Shown in pieces: positions 25,384 to 56,876 of a stretch of DNA of 64,000 nucleotides. The notes under the pieces are model-generated. The model did not search any database. It saw only the letters and a program-made list of their open reading frames with translations, and was not told the DNA's origin. This stretch comes from Candidatus Woesebacteria bacterium (lineage in GTDB: Bacteria > Patescibacteriota > Microgenomatia > UBA1400 > UBA1396). The position numbers and the translations under genes were made by a program. The first letter of the stretch is position 1. Every line of letters begins with the position of its first letter. The stretch covers positions 65,380 through 129,379 of the forward strand of contig CAVVNJ010000009.1 in assembly GCA_963749595.1 (NCBI GenBank), given 5' to 3'.

Positions 25384-25524
25384 TGGTACAATTTAACTCG
25401 ATGCAAAACCAAACCTGGCACCTCATGTGTTATTTTTCCACCACCGGGAGGGGCGTGTTTTTGCGGCAGTAAGTAGAAAAAACCAAAAGACAACACCAAC
25501 CTCCTCACTAGGAGGTTTTTTGTT
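25384..25524 (+). promoter_or_regulatory. leader element L1: extended -10 promoter, closing stem, G-rich box and intrinsic terminator upstream of the M20 gene
   Basis: TGgTACAAT (25384-25392). GCAAAA (25403-08) can pair with TTTTGC (25459-64) around CACC...ACCACCGGGAGGGGCGTG. The terminator AACCTCC-tcacta-GGAGGTT plus T6 is at 25498-25524. Confidence 0.45.
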
Positions 25525-25537
25525 AGGAAAGGAAAAA

Positions 25538-26641
25538 ATGTTAACCAAAAAGGAACTCGTTGACCAGCTGTCAATTCTGGTGGCTTTTCGCACCCTGACC
25601 GGCGACGTTGAGTCCAACCGCCGAGCGCTGGATTATGTTCAATCCTTGTTGTCGCCGAAAGCGAAGATGAAAAGAGTTAGAAATGGTCCAGCGGAGATTT
25701 TATTGGCCGGCAACACTGACAGTCTGAATCCTGATTTCGGTTACCTGGTACACATTGACGTGGTGGCGGCCTCGGAAAAATTGTTCACGCTGCGGAGGGA
25801 GGGCGATCGGGTCTTTGGTCGCGGGGTTAGCGACATGAAGTTCTCGATTCCGCTAGGGATCGCTTTGTTAAATGAAGCCGTTGAAACCAATAGTCAGGTG
25901 ACTTTTTCGCTGGCCATCACGACCGATGAGGAAACGGGCGGATTTGGTGGCGGCAAGTTTTTGGCTACTGAGCTGGCGTGGCAGCCAAAAGCCTTGATCG
26001 TACCGGATGGCGGCGATAATCTGAATTTTGTCAGCAAAGGCAAGGGCGTGGCGCAGTTTCAAGTCAGCGCGAAAGGAGTTTCGGCGCACGCCTCCCGGCC
26101 GTGGTTGGGCAAAAATGCTTTGCCGCCGCTTTGCCAATTGGTAGTCGAGTTGGAACAACGCTATGGCCAGAACAGTCAGCAAGCCAACTGGAATACGACC
26201 CTCAACTTTGGTCAGCTGATCGGTGGAGTTTCAACTAATCAAGTTTGTGACTCGGCAGTATTAAAACTAGATTTCCGTTACCCGGAAACTGATTCGTTCG
26301 AGCGGATCGAGCAGGAGCTGCTGGCTCTTGCCGAGTCAATAGATCCCGAAATTAGCATCGCCAGATTGTCGACCGGATTGCCGACGGTAACTGACGTAAA
26401 ATTAACGGTGGTGCAACGTTTTTTGCAAACTTTGCAGGACGAGTTTCAACAAGAGATACCGGTCAAACCTAATTACGGCGCTTCCGATGCACGCCATTTT
26501 GCCCCGTTTAAAATTCCGGTGCTAATGATTAAGCCGGTGGGCGGAGACATCCACTGCGAAACCGAGTGGCTGGACATCGCGTCAACGCAGAAGTTTTACC
26601 AGGCGTTGCGAAAATTTATTTTCCCAAGAAAGGAGATTTAA
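25538..26641 (+). CDS. M20 family metallopeptidase/deacylase (ArgE/DapE/CPG2-like)
   Basis: HIDVV metal-ligand motif and ITTDEETGGFGG motif. I prefer the ATG at 25538 (RBS AGGAAAGGAAAAA) over the upstream GTG at 25427, which would read through the leader terminator. Confidence 0.7.
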   Translation: MLTKKELVDQLSILVAFRTLTGDVESNRRALDYVQSLLSPKAKMKRVRNGPAEILLAGNTDSLNPDFGYLVHIDVVAASEKLFTLRREGDRVFGRGVSDMKFSIPLGIALLNEAVETNSQVTFSLAITTDEETGGFGGGKFLATELAWQPKALIVPDGGDNLNFVSKGKGVAQFQVSAKGVSAHASRPWLGKNALPPLCQLVVELEQRYGQNSQQANWNTTLNFGQLIGGVSTNQVCDSAVLKLDFRYPETDSFERIEQELLALAESIDPEISIARLSTGLPTVTDVKLTVVQRFLQTLQDEFQQEIPVKPNYGASDARHFAPFKIPVLMIKPVGGDIHCETEWLDIASTQKFYQALRKFIFPRKEI

Positions 26642-27308: not shown

Positions 27309-28554
27309 ATGAAAATCTACAACACTCTAACACAATCGATCGAACCCATTCGCAAGCTAGCGAACGAGGACCAGATCGGGGTGTACGCTTGTGGTCCTAC
27401 CGTCTACGATTACGCGCACATCGGTCACGCGCGCAAGTATACGCTGGACGACGTCTTGATTCGGACTTTGCGGTTGGCTGGTTTTCCGGTGAAACACGTG
27501 ATGAATATCACTGATGTCGGCCAACTGACCTCGGACGCCGATACCGGGGAAGACAAGATGGAAAAAGGCGCCCGTAAATTCGGCAAAACTGTCTGGGAGG
27601 TGGCCGAGTTCTTTGAGGAAGATTTTTGGCGCAAAGCTGATCTGTTGGGTTAAGCACCCCGAGATTGTTGTCGAAAGCCACCGATCACCTCGTGAGCAGA
27701 TCGCGATGGTGAAGAAACTGGAGGACAAGGGCTTCACTTACGAAATTCCTGGTGACGGCATCTATTTTGATACCAGTAAAGACCCGCATTACGGCGAGCT
27801 GGCCCGATTGAAGCTCGATCAACAACTCGAGGGCGCCCGGATCGGCATTACGGAGGGCAAGCGTAATCCCAGCGATTTTGCGTTGTGGAAGTTTTATCCG
27901 GTTGGCGAAAAACATGGAGATGGAATGGGATTCACCGTGGGGCAAAGGTTTTCCCGGTTGGCATATCGAGTGTTCAGCGATGAGTATCAAGTATCTGGGC
28001 GAACAGTTTGCGATCCACACCGGTGGCATTGACCATATTCCGGTTCACCACACTAACGAAATCGCCCAAGCCGAAAACTCTACCGGCAAGCGGCCCTTTG
28101 TCCGTCACTGGGTGCATCATAATTTTTTGCGGGTAGATGGGAAAAAAATGAGCAAGTCGCTCAATAACTTCTATACCCTGGACGACGTGATTGCCAAGGG
28201 ATTTTCGCCGCTGGCGCTAAAACTTTTATTTTTGCAGGCGCACTACCGCGATGAGCTGAATTTTACCTGGAATTCTTTGGCGGGCACCCAAAAGGCCTAC
28301 GAAAAACTGCAACGGCAGGTGGGAAAACTTTTGTCGGCAGCCAGTTACGAAGATCTATCTGAGATACCGGAGCCGGAAGCCGTTAATTTGTCGATGAGCT
28401 TAAGCAGCGGTTGGACGAATTTGTTGGTTATCTGGAAGAAGATCTTAAAACGGCGCAAGCCCTGGCGGTGCTATGGAAGACGGTCAAAGGCTCATCAGTG
28501 GAGGCGCTGCCGGTGATCAAGCGGATGTTCGAATATTTCGGCCTAGCAATCTGA
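27309..28554 (+). pseudogene. cysS: cysteine--tRNA ligase, with multiple apparent frameshifts
   Basis: HIGH motif (YDYAHIGHARKY), [13 protein letters not shown] and KMSKS are all present but spread over frames 0, 1, 2 and 1. Shifts occur near 27645 (G-run), 27918 (A5 run) and 28388 (T-run). A compensating pair near 27675-27700 hides KATDHLV. Confidence 0.88.
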
Positions 28555-28565
28555 AACGAGGTAAA

Positions 28566-29411
28566 GTGAGCGATTTTAAGCTTTTTTCCCACAACGGAAA
28601 AATTTTGCCGGTCAAGGCGGCCAAAGTTTCGCTGTTTAATATCGAATACAGCTATGGTTTCGGCATTTACGAAACGATGAAATTGCGCCATGGACGGCTA
28701 TATTTCGTTGATCAGCACTTGGAGCGATTGTTCCACTCGGCGGCGGTGATCGGAGTCGACATCGGCTATCCGGTGGACCAGATCAACCGGTGGTTGGCGG
28801 AATTGGTCGAAGCCCTGTCAATCGAGGCGGCCAATCTCAAGATTTTGGTGATCGGCGGAAAAGAATCGGCGGTCTATATTTTTGCCAGTGCGCCGCTGTA
28901 TCCGGACAAGAAACTTTATCGTCAGGGGGTGAAACTAATCAGCTATCCCTACGAACGGTTGTTTCCGACGGCCAAGACGCTCAACATGCTGCCGAGTTAT
29001 TTGGCGTATAAAAAGGCGCAGGAAAGTGATTGTTACGATGCTTTGTTGATCGACGCGGAGGGCAACATTCTTGAGGGGACGCGAACGAATTTTTGTTTGG
29101 TGCGCGGTCAAACGATCTACCGCGCGCCGGCGGATCGAGTTTTAGGCGGGGTGACGTTCCTCACCCTGGAGATTGTCGCCAAACGGCTCGGCTGGTCGAT
29201 TGTTGAGCAGTTAGTGCCATTGAAAGAAATCGCCGATTTCGAGGCGGCCTTTGTGACCAGTACGAGCACCAAGATTATGCCGGTTAAGCAGATCGACGAT
29301 CATCTTTTCCCGCCGATTCCGGAACCTATTTTTGCCCTGATCCGGGCTTACGATAATTTTTTGGCGGAGTGCCGGGGCGTCCTGCCGGACGCCCCGGACT
29401 CTTCCGTTTAA
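28566..29411 (+). CDS. class IV (fold-type IV) PLP-dependent aminotransferase / aminodeoxychorismate-lyase-like
   Basis: GTG start after a GAGG RBS. FGIYETMKL...YFVDQHLERL and EGTRTNFCLVRGQTIYRAP fit the BCAT/DAAT family. Confidence 0.7.
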   Translation: MSDFKLFSHNGKILPVKAAKVSLFNIEYSYGFGIYETMKLRHGRLYFVDQHLERLFHSAAVIGVDIGYPVDQINRWLAELVEALSIEAANLKILVIGGKESAVYIFASAPLYPDKKLYRQGVKLISYPYERLFPTAKTLNMLPSYLAYKKAQESDCYDALLIDAEGNILEGTRTNFCLVRGQTIYRAPADRVLGGVTFLTLEIVAKRLGWSIVEQLVPLKEIADFEAAFVTSTSTKIMPVKQIDDHLFPPIPEPIFALIRAYDNFLAECRGVLPDAPDSSV

Positions 29412-30442: not shown

Positions 30443-31018
30443 CTTACCTCCTTATTTTTTGGCGGCCGGATCATCACCGCCGCGCTGTGTCCAGGCCGCA
30501 ATTTTTGTTTGACGACCTCGGCGATTGCCGGATCAATAGCCAATAATTCCTCGGTGCTGGCCTCCACGAAACCCAGTCTTCGGAAAATCGTTCGTGCTAC
30601 CGTGATCGTGAAACAACCATCTTCCGCGGGCAGGGAGTGGATCGCCTGTTGTAGCAGTGACTGTAAAATTTCTCCACCCTGATGCCGACGACTGGGGTGG
30701 ACGACTCCATGGTTGAAGTAGTGCCAAGTTGCTCCTGATCCCCGGAACGGCAAAATCGTGTGGCCGGCCAGAACCTCTCCCTTGGTATCAATGGACGCCC
30801 AAACCGACCCTCCCCTTGAAGAGAAAGTCATTAGTTCCTCTGGCGTGAGATCGCGAATCAGGCCGCCGTTAGAGATGAATTCCGGCTGCAGTAGTCGGTG
30901 TAGTGCGAAGATAGCGGGAAAGTCCATTAAAACACATGGGATAGGTGGGATTAAACCCTGCCTCCAGGGCCTGCGGAATTAGGTTGGTTGGTTTTGGTGG
31001 TAAGAGTTCAATGCTCAT
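30439..31018 (-). pseudogene. GNAT family N-acetyltransferase, with a probable N-terminal frameshift near 30925
   Basis: A strong RBS (AAAGGAG) plus ATG at 31018 opens a 49-codon ORF (MSIELLPPKPTNLIPQALEAGFNPTYPMCFN...). It runs into the 30439-30927 GNAT ORF in another frame. Removing one G from AATGGAC fuses the two. Confidence 0.6.
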
Positions 31019-31039
31019 AGCCACTCCTTTCTTTTGCAT

Positions 31040-31183
31040 AAAAAAACCTCCGGGTTGGCGGAGGTTCGGATTGGTGTATTGATAAATTCTTTTACAACCG
31101 CCGAACCTCCCTGGTTAAATTAAAGGAATAAAAGCGACACATGATTTGGTGAACGGTTGGGTTCATTGCCACTAATTGTAGCA
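31040..31183 (-). promoter_or_regulatory. leader element L3: extended -10 promoter, closing stem, G-rich box with a perfect 10-bp antiterminator, and a terminator upstream of the GNAT-aminotransferase pair
   Basis: Read on the minus strand. TGcTACAAT is at 31183-31175. CAACCG (31159-54) can pair with CGGTTG (31100-095). GGAGGTTCGG (31110-01) is the exact complement of CCGAACCTCC (31069-60), which is also the 5' half of the terminator CCTCCG-ccaacc-CGGAGG plus U7 (31064-31040). Confidence 0.5.
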
Positions 31184-31190
31184 CATTGGT

Positions 31191-31535
31191 TTATAGCCCG
31201 ATTTGTCGCTTAAAAATCAACCAAAATTTTCTCCAAAATCCCGCTTTGGCATACTCGCGGCGGAACTGGTGATATTGCTTGTACTCTTTCCAATCGACCG
31301 TGCCTTGTAGAGGTGGATTAAGCCAGCAGGAAAGAATTCGCCACTCATCTTTATTTTTTTCCTGAGCCACGACCGACAGGGTTCGTCCGGAAAATATTTT
31401 CCGGAATTCGTGGGAGCGGGGCCGTTTGGCGGGCCGATTTGATTCCGGGTGACTAATTGTTTCCACGATCATGCTGTGGGAGATACCGCGTTGCCGCAGT
31501 CGTTCTTGCGCGTGGTGAGTCCAGAATAACTTCAT
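31191..31535 (-). CDS. DUF4258-like small protein (toxin-like fold family)
   Basis: The N-terminus WTHHAQERLRQRGISHSMIVETI matches the DUF4258 H..ER...RGI signature. The C-terminal tail is basic and hydrophobic. Confidence 0.5.
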   Translation of the reverse strand: MKLFWTHHAQERLRQRGISHSMIVETISHPESNRPAKRPRSHEFRKIFSGRTLSVVAQEKNKDEWRILSCWLNPPLQGTVDWKEYKQYHQFRREYAKAGFWRKFWLIFKRQIGL

Positions 31536-54113: not shown

Positions 54114-54279
54114 TTTCACAAGAGCGGCGACGTGGTGTATAATGTCGCCAATGGCATTGGAAAACACTCACCACCAGGCTTGGTATTACACCTTAACCAG
54201 GGGGGTGCGGTTTCTGATGGGCTAAAAAAATAAAAGCATGAGTCAGGCCAAACCTCCCAGATGGGAGGTTTTTTGTTTT
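54114..54279 (+). promoter_or_regulatory. leader element L2: promoter, hairpins, G-rich box and intrinsic terminator upstream of the nucleoside-salvage operon (alternatively a ~130-nt sRNA)
   Basis: TTCACA, an 18-nt spacer, then TATAAT (54138-43). The hairpin CCAATG-gc-CATTGG is followed by CACCACC...ACCAGGGGGGTGCGGTTTC. The terminator AACCTCCC-agat-GGGAGGTT plus TTTTGTTTT is at 54251-54279. Confidence 0.5.
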
Positions 54280-54297: not shown

Positions 54298-55288
54298 ATG
54301 CCGGAAAAATTAAAAAATATTTTATGGATGGGAGAAGAACTCGATTTTGAGCTTCGGCCCGATGCCAAAGCGGAGGCAAAAGCATTGATTGCTCGCTTTC
54401 TGCGGCTGACCGCCAACCCGACTTTGTCCCACTGGCTTTATTGAGCCAACACAGAATATCCCCAAACTTAAATCTCAGATCGAAACTCGACATCATCGCC
54501 AGCCATTCACTTTTGTTGTCGATCTAGCCCGCGGTCCTTTGATTCGAGCCCTTGCTTGTCTGGACCAAGTCCCGCATTGGACCGGATTTTCCATGGGTCG
54601 TATTCGGGAAGTCAGTAGTATCGATCTTCCCACCAGTGGTCATATGCTCAGTCACAATCTAGAGGAAATACGAGCGCTCTTGGCGAACCAAGACCTAAGC
54701 AATATCTTGGTTTTAGATGACACCTCTTTTTCCGGATCGACCTCATTGATTTTCGAGAAACTATTGCGAGCGGCGTTCTCCGAGAAGAAGATGGATTTCA
54801 CGCATGGTTTCTTGATTCTCAACCAGGGAAAGCTTGGCAGCAACCCAGGTGCCAAAGAAAGACTCGGAGCAAAGGCTTTTGGTGGTCGGGAAATGGTTAC
54901 TCCTAAGGATGATGGCTGGCACTTTTTCGATTTAGTGAAGCAAGGAGACATTGCCAACCACCTATTGGTACTAAGTGAAATTCTTAAGCTTATTGGTCGG
55001 CCAAACTTCCCCCAATTGGCAAATGCCATTTTAGCCGACGAAAAAACGCTACGGTTAATGTTTCCTCAGGTGATTACCGCTCGAGAAATATTGGAATTAC
55101 AATCAACCGGTCATTTTATCGGCCAGCTGAAAACGGAAGGCGGGTTTCAGGTTCGGAACCCCCAATTGTTGCCCAATATAATTGGTCAAAAACACTTATT
55201 GCCGCCCAGCGAGTGGCGAGGGGATCGGGATGAGGTTTTTGAGCTGTTGCTTGCGTTGAATCAACTATTAGCGAAAGGATCGCGATGA
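54298..55288 (+). pseudogene. phosphoribosyltransferase-like protein, with a probable N-terminal frameshift near 54410-54444
   Basis: Type I PRT motif NILVLDDTSFSGST. The main ORF (54539 TTG) has no RBS, but its frame is open back to 54410. There it overlaps a 48-codon ORF that has a good RBS/ATG at 54298. Confidence 0.45.
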
Positions 55289-55956
55289 ATAAAATTGAGG
55301 CCATTGTTTTTGACTTAGACGGAACGTTGTACTCTTTCGACGATCGAAACGAGAGTCATTTTCCGTCCTCCCGCTTTGGGCAACAGATTCAAGCTAATTG
55401 TCGGAAATTTTTTCAGGACCGTTTTGGCTTGAACGAGTTGGAAGCTCAGGCCTGCTATTTGGATTTCAATGAGCGATACCAGGGAGAAGTAAGCTTGGGT
55501 TTGGAGCGTGAACGAGGGGTGCCGCGTAGTGAGTACTTTGCGGTGACGTGGAATCTCCAGCCGCAAGATTTTTTGGTGGCCAATCAGGAATTGAAACAAA
55601 CACTCAGCTTGTTATCAGTGAAGACTGGGATCTTGAGTGCCGCACCGAGAATATGGGTCGATCGTGTCCTGCAATTCTTAGCCATAAATCAGTTTTTTGC
55701 GGAAGCCATCTTTACCGGCGATCCGGATATCCGCAAACCGGATCCACGGTCGTTCCAACAATTGGTCGACTTTTGGCAGCTGGCACCTCAGAAAATTGTT
55801 TCCATTGGCGATCAAGAAAAAACCGACATTCTGCCGGCAAAAAGCTTAGGAATGTTGACGGTGCGAATTGGTAGAGATCTAGAAACTAAAGCTGATTTTC
55901 AGGCCGGTGACGTTATTCAGGCGATCGCGTTATTAAAAGAGAAAGGATTAATATGA
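55285..55956 (+). CDS. HAD-IA family hydrolase (phosphatase)
   Basis: VFDLDGTLY motif I and SIGDQEKTDI motif IV. It overlaps both neighbours by 4 nt. Confidence 0.75.
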   Translation: MNKIEAIVFDLDGTLYSFDDRNESHFPSSRFGQQIQANCRKFFQDRFGLNELEAQACYLDFNERYQGEVSLGLERERGVPRSEYFAVTWNLQPQDFLVANQELKQTLSLLSVKTGILSAAPRIWVDRVLQFLAINQFFAEAIFTGDPDIRKPDPRSFQQLVDFWQLAPQKIVSIGDQEKTDILPAKSLGMLTVRIGRDLETKADFQAGDVIQAIALLKEKGLI

Positions 55957-56876
55957 ATAAGTTGTTAAAGAAAAAGATCATCATCGACACCGACCCCGGC
56001 CATGACGATGCGCTGGCTTTGCTGCTAATGCTGAAATCAGGGCAGTTTGACGTCCAGGCGGTGACCACGGTGGCCGGCAACGCGACGATCGATAAAGTCA
56101 CTCGCAACGCCCAAGCGATTTTGGATCTGATTAGGTCGAAGGTTCCGGTGTTTTCTGGCCAACCTAGCCCTTTAAAGCGGGAACTGGTGACGGCGGTTGT
56201 GCACGGTGAGAGTGGTCTAGACGGGTTTGATACTTCAAAAACGAACTACCGCCTGACCGCCGACGCGCCGGAAAGGATCATTGAGATTGTCCGGAAAAAT
56301 CCTGGCGAGGTAACGATTTTAGCTCTTGGTCCGCTGACCAACCTGGCGCGGGCGTTCCAACTCGATCCGGAATTGCCGTCCCTGATTCCGCAAGTAGCGA
56401 TTATGGGCGGGGCAATTGATGTTCCGGGAAATAAAAACCGGGTAGCGGAGTTCAACTTCTTCGTCGATCCGGAAGCGGCGGACATTGTTTTCCGGTCGGA
56501 GGTCCCGAAAGTTTTGGTTCCGCTTGATGCCTGTAATAAGGTGGTTTTACAGGTTGAGGATTTTGAACGGCTGGCCAATCGACGATTGAAAAAAATCTTG
56601 GTGCCGATGATGCGACACTTTATGGCCGGACTAACTGTCAATGAAGGGACCAAAGGACTTTTGGTCTACGACGCCCTAGCCGGGTATTTTCTGCTGAATC
56701 CTAAAGCTTTCCAACTCGAGCCGATGAATATTGTGATCGAAACGAAAGGTGAACACACGTTCGGCATGAGCGTGGCCGAACGACGAAAGTATAAACGGGA
56801 GACGCCTAACGTGATGGTGGCTAAAGAGTTGGACCAGAATCAGTTCAAACGGGATTTATTTGCCACACTTGGTTAG
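55953..56876 (+). CDS. nucleoside hydrolase (IUNH family)
   Basis: The N-terminal IIIDTDPGHDDALALLLML aspartate cluster is diagnostic for the inosine-uridine-preferring nucleoside hydrolase family. Confidence 0.85.
   Translation: MNKLLKKKIIIDTDPGHDDALALLLMLKSGQFDVQAVTTVAGNATIDKVTRNAQAILDLIRSKVPVFSGQPSPLKRELVTAVVHGESGLDGFDTSKTNYRLTADAPERIIEIVRKNPGEVTILALGPLTNLARAFQLDPELPSLIPQVAIMGGAIDVPGNKNRVAEFNFFVDPEAADIVFRSEVPKVLVPLDACNKVVLQVEDFERLANRRLKKILVPMMRHFMAGLTVNEGTKGLLVYDALAGYFLLNPKAFQLEPMNIVIETKGEHTFGMSVAERRKYKRETPNVMVAKELDQNQFKRDLFATLG

Follow-up and report, generated by a model that had tools for sequence, protein, structure and literature searches.

A probable tyrosine/phenylalanine leader-peptide attenuator upstream of a GNAT-like/aminotransferase gene pair in Candidatus Woesebacteria, with related leaders in other Patescibacteria

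Control of transcription through the translation of a leader peptide is a textbook form of attenuation, known mainly from Proteobacteria and in some cases from Actinobacteria. This study concerns an element in a 64,000-nucleotide (nt) stretch of DNA from a Candidatus Woesebacteria bacterium (contig CAVVNJ010000009.1, positions 65,380 to 129,379), which we call the window and number from its first letter. The element lies on the minus strand upstream of a GNAT-like gene and an aminotransferase gene, and is most likely a four-segment, ribosome-mediated (leader-peptide) transcription attenuator that senses tyrosine and phenylalanine. It resembles the pheL-pheA and pheST leaders of gamma-proteobacteria (PMC3082878) in its short open reading frame (ORF) with aromatic codons, in its protector, antiterminator and terminator helices, in a stop codon placed so that the terminating ribosome would block the antiterminator and, across the family described below, in the apparent control of aromatic amino-acid genes together with a tRNA synthetase. 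With the E. coli trp attenuator (kinetics in PMC1183508) it has in common the four segments, the position of the regulatory codons in segment 1 and the mutual exclusivity of the 1:2, 2:3 and 3:4 helices; trpL has two Trp codons and the window leader three aromatic codons, few regulatory codons sufficing in both. The element would be expected to work like pheL/pheA, pheST and trpL (PMC3082878, PMC1183508, PMC1262725).

The element also differs from each of these systems. Tyr and Phe codons are mixed here, in contrast to the pure Phe run of the pheL-pheA and pheST leaders, and there is no Shine-Dalgarno (SD) sequence, the ATG stands 6-12 nt past the -10 hexamer, the host belongs to the Patescibacteria, and the genes that follow encode a GNAT-fold protein and a HisC-like aminotransferase. 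Compared with trp, the 2:3 helix of window-type leaders is predicted to be far more stable than the 1:2 helix, and termination would lean on a ribosome covering segment 2 and less on 1:2 pairing. The leaderless polycysteine small ORFs of mycobacteria, as outlined in 10.1101/834739 and PMC4633059, likewise start at or near the 5' end without an SD sequence and carry codons for the amino acid of their operon; going by these outlines they differ in amino acid, phylum and sequence, and the window leader has an explicit terminator/antiterminator pair. T-box leaders (RF00230), which precede tyrS and aromatic operons of Firmicutes, are alike in that tRNA charging decides between terminator and antiterminator, whereas the window leader is without Stem I, specifier loop and T-box sequence and would sense charging through the translating ribosome, not through tRNA binding. 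No match to the T-box model (93 bits) was detected in the window, and the test works because the same model detects a T-box in a related locus (L094) at 100 bits. The element is not a sequence member of the Rfam Phe_leader family (RF01859), the window scoring 18.6 bits (E = 1.2) against a gathering score of 55. Full-text literature searches revealed no paper in which leader peptides, or attenuation of transcription, are connected to the Candidate Phyla Radiation or Patescibacteria. The element thus appears to belong to a new leader family of a known attenuator kind, with mixed Tyr/Phe codons, a probable leaderless start and the host lineage as its distinctive features.

An earlier note on this DNA had described a terminator/antiterminator pair at this site, and all of its coordinates proved right in minus-strand reading. 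The segments GGAGGTTCGG (31110-31101) and CCGAACCTCC (31069-31060) are exactly complementary, and the second shares bases with the 5' arm of the terminator (CCTCCG 31064-31059, loop CCAACC 31058-31053, CGGAGG 31052-31047, T7 31046-31040). The antiterminator and terminator helices are mutually exclusive, covary in relatives and are positioned between a -10-like box and the gene pair; the sequence AAAGGAG (31030-31024) and the ATG at 31018, the first base of which is 22 nt past the last T, follow downstream. The intrinsic terminator as a whole occupies 31067-31040, and its stem (GAACCUCCG/CGGAGGUUU) can be extended to nine pairs (31067-31059 with 31052-31044). In a consensus scan of the 28-34 kb region, 31067-31044 was the best-formed of seven terminator-like sites and the only nine-pair site on the minus strand. 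The comparison of fold energies that the note had called for gave -21.0 kcal/mol for the antiterminator hairpin (31111-31060) and -12.8 to -13.0 kcal/mol for the terminator (31067-31044), and the antiterminator hairpin was the minimum-free-energy fold of the free leader RNA.

The 10-nt complement at 31110-31101/31069-31060 is more than chance. The exact 10-mer GGAGGTTCGG/CCGAACCTCC is found at just these two sites in the window, one per strand, and the strongest predicted pairing of the terminator 5' arm with the leader upstream of it reached -21.5 kcal/mol, compared with -10.6 +/- 2.7 kcal/mol for dinucleotide shuffles (2/500 as good). A chance origin is made unlikely by this uniqueness, by the margin over the shuffles and by the recurrence of the arrangement in 10 leaders elsewhere. 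Given the exclusivity of the helices, their position before the gene pair and their conservation with covariation, the proposal that the choice of helix decides expression appears to be the best reading. The earlier note, which recognized the helix pair, overlooked a leader ORF with Phe-Tyr-Ser-Phe codons, a protector helix and a family of homologous leaders; because of these three features, the likely effector, which the note had left as unknown, is the supply of charged tRNA-Tyr and tRNA-Phe, and the element is unlikely to be an unknown-ligand switch.

Directly past the stop codon of the upstream DUF4258 gene (31191), the minus strand carries an extended -10 element, TGCTACAAT (31183-31175), and transcription probably starts close to it. 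The leader ORF (31166-31092; peptide MNPTVHQIMCRFYSFNLTREVRRL) has 24 codons, from an ATG at 31166-31164 to a TAA at 31094-31092. Since its ATG stands 8 nt past the -10 box and is without an SD sequence, the ORF is probably translated from a leaderless or nearly leaderless transcript. The regulatory codons lie at 31133-31122 and comprise UUU (Phe12, 31133-31131), UAU (Tyr13, 31130-31128), a UCC and UUU (Phe15, 31124-31122). They are held within region 1, the protector 5' strand (UCGCUUUUAUUCCUU, 31137-31123), which pairs with region 2 in the predicted nascent transcript: in the fold of the prefix ending at 31092, UCGCU-UUUA-UUCCUU (31137-31123) pairs with AGGGAG-GUUC-GGCGG (31112-31098). Region 2 (AGGGAGGUUCGGCGGUUG, 31112-31095) sits in the last codons of the ORF, and its core, GGAGGUUCGG (31110-31101), is the 5' arm of the antiterminator; the stop codon of the ORF falls just beyond this arm. 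Region 3 (CCGAACCUCCG, 31069-31059) is common to the antiterminator, in which it pairs with region 2, and the terminator, in which it pairs with region 4.

These elements fit the following mechanism. The transcript would begin a few bases downstream of TGCTACAAT (31183-31175), with the ATG at 31166 at or right beside its 5' end, and a ribosome would translate the 24-codon ORF without the aid of an SD sequence. When charged tRNA-Phe and tRNA-Tyr are ample, the ribosome would run to the stop codon (31094-31092) and cover region 2 (31112-31095); as this leaves region 3 only region 4 to pair with, the terminator would form and the polymerase would stop at 31046-31040. When charged tRNA-Phe or tRNA-Tyr is scarce, the ribosome would stall on UUU-UAU-UCC-UUU (31133-31122), melting the pairing of region 1 with region 2 and leaving region 2 free beyond its footprint. 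Region 2 would then bind region 3 in a helix of 10 perfect pairs with an inner stem (-21 kcal/mol), no terminator would form, and transcription would read through into the GNAT-like and aminotransferase genes. The observations comprise the elements seen in the sequence, how these are conserved and covary, and the folds predicted under ribosome masking; from these we infer where transcription starts, that translation is leaderless, that termination occurs, that the element responds to Tyr/Phe and that the enzymes act in aromatic metabolism.

Ten leaders of the same layout were identified in other Patescibacteria loci, placed before homologous aminotransferase/GNAT-like genes or before operons for aromatic biosynthesis and tyrosyl-tRNA synthetase (TyrRS). 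Every fetched locus that encodes the GNAT-like protein or a close homologue of the aminotransferase carries a leader of this design before the operon. In each of them Tyr and Phe codons are clustered (YYFSYF, FYYYKFF, FFYYF and the like), and a protector helix is combined with an antiterminator and a terminator. The predicted peptides are MEKAGQSHKYYKFSASLITGGGLSAV in L001, MQTSTNLTDYTYFRSFAGEVGLA in L006, MSLLRCSYYFSYFTSSLMGQRDVRKAK in L007, MNSTSQKFYYYKFFTSQIGRMVAGTNMN in L092, MNCSGNQSFFGFYKAFFVGELVAVDKNLTLLC in L093, MHMQSNQYFFYFASTLEGLLAVVNR in L096, MNSQRNQNFFYYFTPVLGGDCVA in L098 and MMRQSNRFYFYFAPVLGGVAVVS in L099, where a second leader is also present; the two tandem leaders of L010 encode MQSMLQGKYFTTKTPILGGVLAVA (first leader, L010a) and MDNTRWHKFSFYTSFPLGRASPW (second leader, L010b). 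The aminotransferase genes of L096, L098, L099 and L100 are surrounded by genes for DAHP synthase, prephenate dehydratase, chorismate mutase, prephenate dehydrogenase, EPSP synthase/shikimate kinase or chorismate synthase. In L007, L010, L096, L098 and L099, a gene directly or shortly downstream encodes a class Ib tRNA synthetase (Pfam tRNA-synt_1b); it is probably TyrRS, and a weak match to the TyrRS C-terminal Pfam family was detected in L010 and L096. With such operon contents, Tyr/Phe would be a sensible signal, and the T-box of a relative may be the same logic implemented in another way.

The family sample comprised 14 leaders in all, and the codon, fold and protector tests were performed on 11 of them (the window leader and the 10 from other loci). 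A leader ORF of 23-32 codons was present in 11/11 leaders. Phe and Tyr accounted for 48/267 codons, compared with 9% expected from base composition (P = 4e-6) or with a typical proteome frequency assumed to be 8% (P = 1e-7). These codons all lay within codons 8-17, with none elsewhere, and all were of the form U[UA]Y, with UUU, UUC, UAU and UAC each represented. Spacing was also constrained. In every leader scored, a listing that excludes L010a, the stop codon was 41-54 nt before the T-run. The 5' strand of the antiterminator started 1-21 nt downstream of the final aromatic codon and ended at -1 to +28 nt relative to the stop. A TAnAnT hexamer was found 6-12 nt before the ATG in 12/12 promoter-proximal leaders (two more from the window included), mostly preceded by TG and in 7/12 with TGC directly in front. 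No SD-like motif was detected within 18 nt of the ATG in any of these 12 leaders, while the internal tandem leaders do have one (GGAG in L010b, AGGAGA in the second leader of L099). The combination of this -10-to-ATG spacing without an SD sequence and the SD sequences of the second tandem leaders suggests that the first ORF is translated leaderless, or nearly so, across the family.

Ribosome movement was modeled by masking a 28-nt footprint (-15/+12 around the A-site codon) and refolding the remainder to minimum free energy. For the window leader, the antiterminator was the best fold with Phe12, Tyr13 or Phe15 in the A site, and the terminator was the best fold from codon 16 to the stop. The predicted switch from no terminator to terminator occurred in 10/11 leaders with the ribosome on the last aromatic codon or no more than a few codons from it. 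Folding of the nascent prefix paired region 2 with upstream sequence enclosing the aromatic codons in 11/11 leaders. The free RNA folded as the antiterminator in the window, L001, L006, L092 and L093, and termination in these five leaders would for this reason need a ribosome on region 2.

Pairing between regions 2 and 3 was compared with dinucleotide shuffles, giving z = -4.0 for the window; no more than 2/500 shuffles were as good in 6/11 leaders. Cognate combinations of regions 2 and 3 had a mean energy of -19.7 kcal/mol compared with -15.1 kcal/mol for non-cognate combinations, a difference reached in 0/20,000 permutations. In an alignment of the 14 leaders anchored on the T-run, 95% of terminator cells were paired and covariation was 0.405, compared with 0.159 for shuffles (0/500 reached the observed value). 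In a single ungapped register of the same alignment, 74% of antiterminator cells were paired, double changes were seen at 8/12 pairs, and covariation was 0.283 compared with 0.165 for shuffles (0/500 reached) and at most 0.19 for slid registers. One column of region 3 changed from U to C together with its region 2 partner (A to G) and its region 4 partner (A to G), and in this alignment region 2 mimics region 4.

Two further approaches were less useful. RNAalifold applied to the raw MAFFT alignment returned a chimera of 1:4 and 2:3 pairings, because region 1 resembles region 3 and region 2 resembles region 4; it was rejected as a structure, and the result fits a four-segment design. A simple pattern of an ORF with three or more aromatic residues in seven plus a terminator was unspecific. 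Controls also matched, mostly where real genes end at their 3' side; one of these, with the C-terminus ...VSYPTFF, we take to be aroA/EPSP synthase. What makes the leaders specific is their position upstream of the operon and not the pattern. The matches listed by a contig profile search with an alignment of 17 aminotransferases were generic HisC genes of Bacillota and Bacteroidota, which were uninformative on the leader, and 506 kb of this sequence was reused as a negative control.

Other explanations of the element were weighed against attenuation by a translating ribosome. A factor that chooses the helix, either an RNA-binding protein or an uncharged tRNA in the style of TRAP, PyrR or the T-box, is unlikely. 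It leaves unexplained the conserved ORF, the -10-to-ATG spacing, the restriction of SD sequences to internal tandem copies and the fixed distance from stop to terminator. The leader is about 130 nt long, too short for a T-box, and contains no T-box sequence; the Rfam T-box and PyrR models stayed below threshold (PyrR 17 bits against 54), and no repeated protein-binding triplets were visible in the leader sequence. What speaks for such a factor is the T-box that precedes a homologous operon type in L094/L095, which demonstrates that tRNA-sensing leaders exist in related genomes, together with weak, sub-threshold PyrR and Phe_leader alignments in the window. We regard as quite improbable a metabolite-binding riboswitch that stabilizes one of the helices, the ORF being incidental. 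The alternative helices alone would fit this explanation, as would CGGCGGTT, which is conserved as nucleotides between the window and L001 though the reading frames differ. However, no Rfam model matched the leaders at gathering score, whether in the window or at 9 related loci, and at E <= 10 the window gave nothing convincing; these searches returned only tRNAs and noise. In the alignment of 11 leaders (A6) the conserved blocks were limited to the ATG, the aromatic codons, region 2 and regions 3/4; since the segment between regions 2 and 3 varies freely in length and sequence, there is no aptamer-like core. The CGGCGG of the window is accounted for by its pairing with UCGCU of region 1, and a riboswitch does not need the conserved ORF, its length, the position of its stop or its U[UA]Y codons.

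The upstream genes bear on a simpler explanation, in which the hairpin is the ordinary terminator of the ABC-transporter/DUF4258 operon and the complement is fortuitous. The hairpin and T-run do lie 125-150 nt past the DUF4258 stop (31191), with no other terminator between the two units. This explanation is highly improbable: a perfect 10-nt complement on a terminator arm is rare by chance, and the leader travels with aminotransferase and aromatic genes, not with DUF4258. Elsewhere the upstream gene is divergent, encoding an integrase in L001 and a penicillin-binding protein in L007, L010, L096, L098 and L099, and because it is on the other strand the leader cannot be its terminator in these six loci. 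The remaining explanation is that control is mainly translational, with GGAGG in region 4 (31051-31047) serving as the SD sequence for an ATG (31039-31037) that directly follows the T-run at a distance of 7 nt and shares the frame of 31018. The hallmark of intrinsic termination, a GC-rich stem followed at once by six or seven U, is invariant in the family, the main start at 31018 has a strong SD sequence of its own outside the hairpin, and in L001, L006 and L098 the start after the T-run is out of frame with the gene; mainly translational control is accordingly very improbable. Nevertheless, the T-run is followed by ATG, GTG or CGTG in 9/13 leaders, 6-7 nt after a GGAGG or GGGG in the terminator 3' arm, and after L010b the T-run and the ATG of the gene are just 5 nt apart, with no further SD sequence visible in between. 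In addition, the 32 nt of CGGAGGTTTTTTTATGCAAAAGAAAGGAGTGG (CGGAGG to GGAGTGG; window 31052-31021, L006 1781-1812) are identical in two loci whose proteins are about 50% identical. Translational control may thus be an extra layer, not an alternative, and the terminator arm may double as the ribosome-binding site of a bridging mini-ORF or an N-terminal extension.

Several points weigh against the interpretation of the element as a Tyr/Phe attenuator. The window peptide has just 3/24 aromatic codons (P = 0.4 alone), and the case rests on the family, in which the leaders are related by descent so that the P-values overstate independence. We infer both the transcription start and the translation of an ORF that has no SD sequence. 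The prefix that holds the protector and another hairpin folds at just -12.8 kcal/mol, compared with -21 kcal/mol for the antiterminator; because the free RNA folds as the antiterminator, an untranslated window leader would default to read-through, unlike trp. Minimum-free-energy masking with a fixed -15/+12 footprint is crude, and L010b never formed the antiterminator under it. The duplex z-scores of L001, L099 and L010b were weak, and the antiterminator register of alignment A7 was fitted by a duplex search. The role of the enzymes in Tyr/Phe metabolism is deduced from the gene context of homologues that are 32-37% identical, and no gene of an aromatic pathway is adjacent in the window. Finally, the assembly carries indel errors. 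Single-base details consequently need care, as frame breaks in UvrA and CysS (below) illustrate; the leader ORF is nevertheless intact and fits the family.

The first structural gene starts with the SD sequence AAAGGAG and the ATG at 31018-31016 (together 31030-31016). The GNAT-fold gene (31018-30439) is split as assembled, because the frame of ATG 31018 stops at 30869 after 49 codons and the GNAT domain lies in the +1 frame relative to this ATG (30927-30439, 162 codons); the program-made ORF list starts the first of these ORFs at the in-frame ATG 31039 (56 amino acids, 30869-31039). The aminotransferase gene (30442-29408), of class I/II and HisC-like (Pfam PF00155, E = 6e-26), overlaps the GNAT-like gene by ATGA (30442-30439). 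The 162-amino-acid GNAT-like protein matched no Pfam family at E <= 0.01, and the precomputed Pfam field of its homologues was also empty. AlphaFold2 gave a model with a mean predicted local distance difference test (pLDDT) of 94 and a predicted template modeling (pTM) score of 0.88, for which the best Foldseek matches were ArgA, N-acetylglutamate synthase and other GNATs (E about 1e-5, TM about 0.6). On the basis of this model and these matches, we are confident that the product of the first regulated gene has a GNAT fold. The name GNAT-aminotransferase pair used in the earlier note is therefore valid at the level of fold, for a protein without a Pfam match and a gene with a broken reading frame.

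The family of the GNAT-like protein is tiny, with 25 representatives among 1.84 billion proteins in a full HMMER scan. A word-indexed protein search returned one cluster other than that of the window, and a metagenome contig profile search with the GNAT-like alignment returned a single locus, L092. The members of the family always adjoin this aminotransferase, in either gene order, or are fused to its C-terminus. The window aminotransferase is probably an aromatic aminotransferase, judged by the company of its homologues. A class IV aminotransferase gene of the branched-chain/D-amino-acid type (28473-29411, plus strand) converges on the class I/II gene, the stop codons overlapping at 29408-29411, and as listed its ORF also overlaps the last fragment of CysS. 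Upstream on the minus strand lie a GNAT gene (33838-33326), genes for an ABC ATPase and an ABC-2 permease, and the DUF4258 gene that ends at 31191.

The GNAT-like gene of L006 is likewise split from frame 0 to +1 (1814-1975 and 1953-2405), in an independent Logan assembly with 53% protein identity and other genes that look intact. A CUU_U site is present in both frame overlaps (30922-30919 in the window, UUC CUU UAU in L006), and GGGTTTA is common to both; in L006 the zero-frame codon after the CUU slippery site is Tyr (UAU). Frame breaks also occur in other genes of the window. The UvrA gene (36849-33917) has two frame changes within about 100 nt compared with an intact, 83%-identical homologue of 977 amino acids, CysS (27309-28516) is in three pieces in the window and intact at 410 amino acids in L101, and the gene at 54298-55288 is also frame-broken, which suggests that the window assembly is indel-prone. 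The break in the GNAT-like gene could be due to sequencing error, pseudogene formation or a programmed +1 frameshift, which are indistinguishable in these data. A two-tier form of aromatic sensing, in which the leaderless Tyr/Phe attenuator is combined with a requirement of the GNAT-like gene for a +1 frameshift of the prfB type (CUU_U) that a slow codon promotes, is an improbable conjecture. Considerably more likely is the modest version, in which the leaders would define a Tyr/Phe regulon found throughout the Microgenomates lineage, with an M20 peptidase among its members.

This peptidase lies behind a second attenuator in the window, at 25385-25521 on the plus strand, with TGGTACAAT, an ATG at 25401, the predicted peptide MQNQTWHLMCYFSTTGRGVFLRQ and the terminator AACCTCCTCACTAGGAGG-T6. 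It precedes an M20/M25/M40 peptidase gene (25538-26641; Pfam E = 5e-19), and its peptide resembles that of the leader at 31166 (HLMCYFS and QIMCRFYS, respectively). A third, attenuator-like candidate was identified at 54138-54274 on the plus strand, with TATAAT, an ATG at 54151, the predicted peptide MALENTHHQAWYYTLTRGVRFLMG and the terminator AAACCTCCCAGATGGGAGG-T6. The genes that follow (54298-56876) comprise a frame-broken gene with a VLDDTSFSGST motif and no Pfam match, which to us looks phosphoribosyltransferase-like, a HAD hydrolase gene and an inosine-uridine nucleoside hydrolase gene, the link of which to aromatic amino acids is unclear.

Variations on the arrangement were observed in the related loci. 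Tandem attenuators, with two complete units (ORF, antiterminator and terminator) in series before the operon, are present at 3725-4000 in L010 and at 1219-1500 in L099. The called start of the L099 DAHP synthase gene (1392) falls inside the second leader and was for this reason probably called too far upstream. A ATTGACAA(T/C)nnnTGnTA(T/G)ACT block is conserved at about 3695-3712 in L010, 338-358 in L096, 1399-1418 in L098 and 1190-1210 in L099. The TTGACA in ATTGACAA is 8 nt before the -10 hexamer, which we judge too close for a usual -35 element, and could be an operator or reflect an unusual promoter geometry. In L094, and identically in L095, the T-box (positions 1217-1511; 100 bits against a gathering score of 93) precedes an operon of chorismate mutase, DAHP synthase, prephenate dehydrogenase and aminotransferase genes, and a UAC (Tyr) is found in the aligned specifier-loop region (GAAUUACC) as a candidate only. 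The best named relatives of the window UvrA belong to Woesebacteria, Pacebacteria, the Microgenomates group and Patescibacteria, which places the window in a Patescibacteria genome of the Microgenomates group. The segment between uvrA and cysS is a variable island, to judge from the closest relative found, represented by L101 (13083-21168) and L102 (11519-19604), with a UvrA 83% identical to that of the window. There, it encodes a type I restriction-modification system, SMODS, SLATT and a Bro-N protein; in the window it instead holds the GNAT gene, the ABC transporter, DUF4258, the leader, the GNAT-like gene and the two aminotransferases. As this defense island replaces the segment in L101 and L102, the leader is not comparable at close range.

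If the proposed mechanism is correct, the coupling of transcription to translation in these reduced, uncultured bacteria would be tight enough to permit attenuation by a ribosome, and their sensor ORF would use leaderless initiation. Sister lineages would swap a leader-peptide attenuator and a T-box on the same aromatic operon. The Tyr/Phe codons would also provide a functional lead for the rare GNAT-fold family and for the M20 peptidase under the sister leader, and leaders of this kind could help to annotate amino-acid regulons in Patescibacteria genomes.

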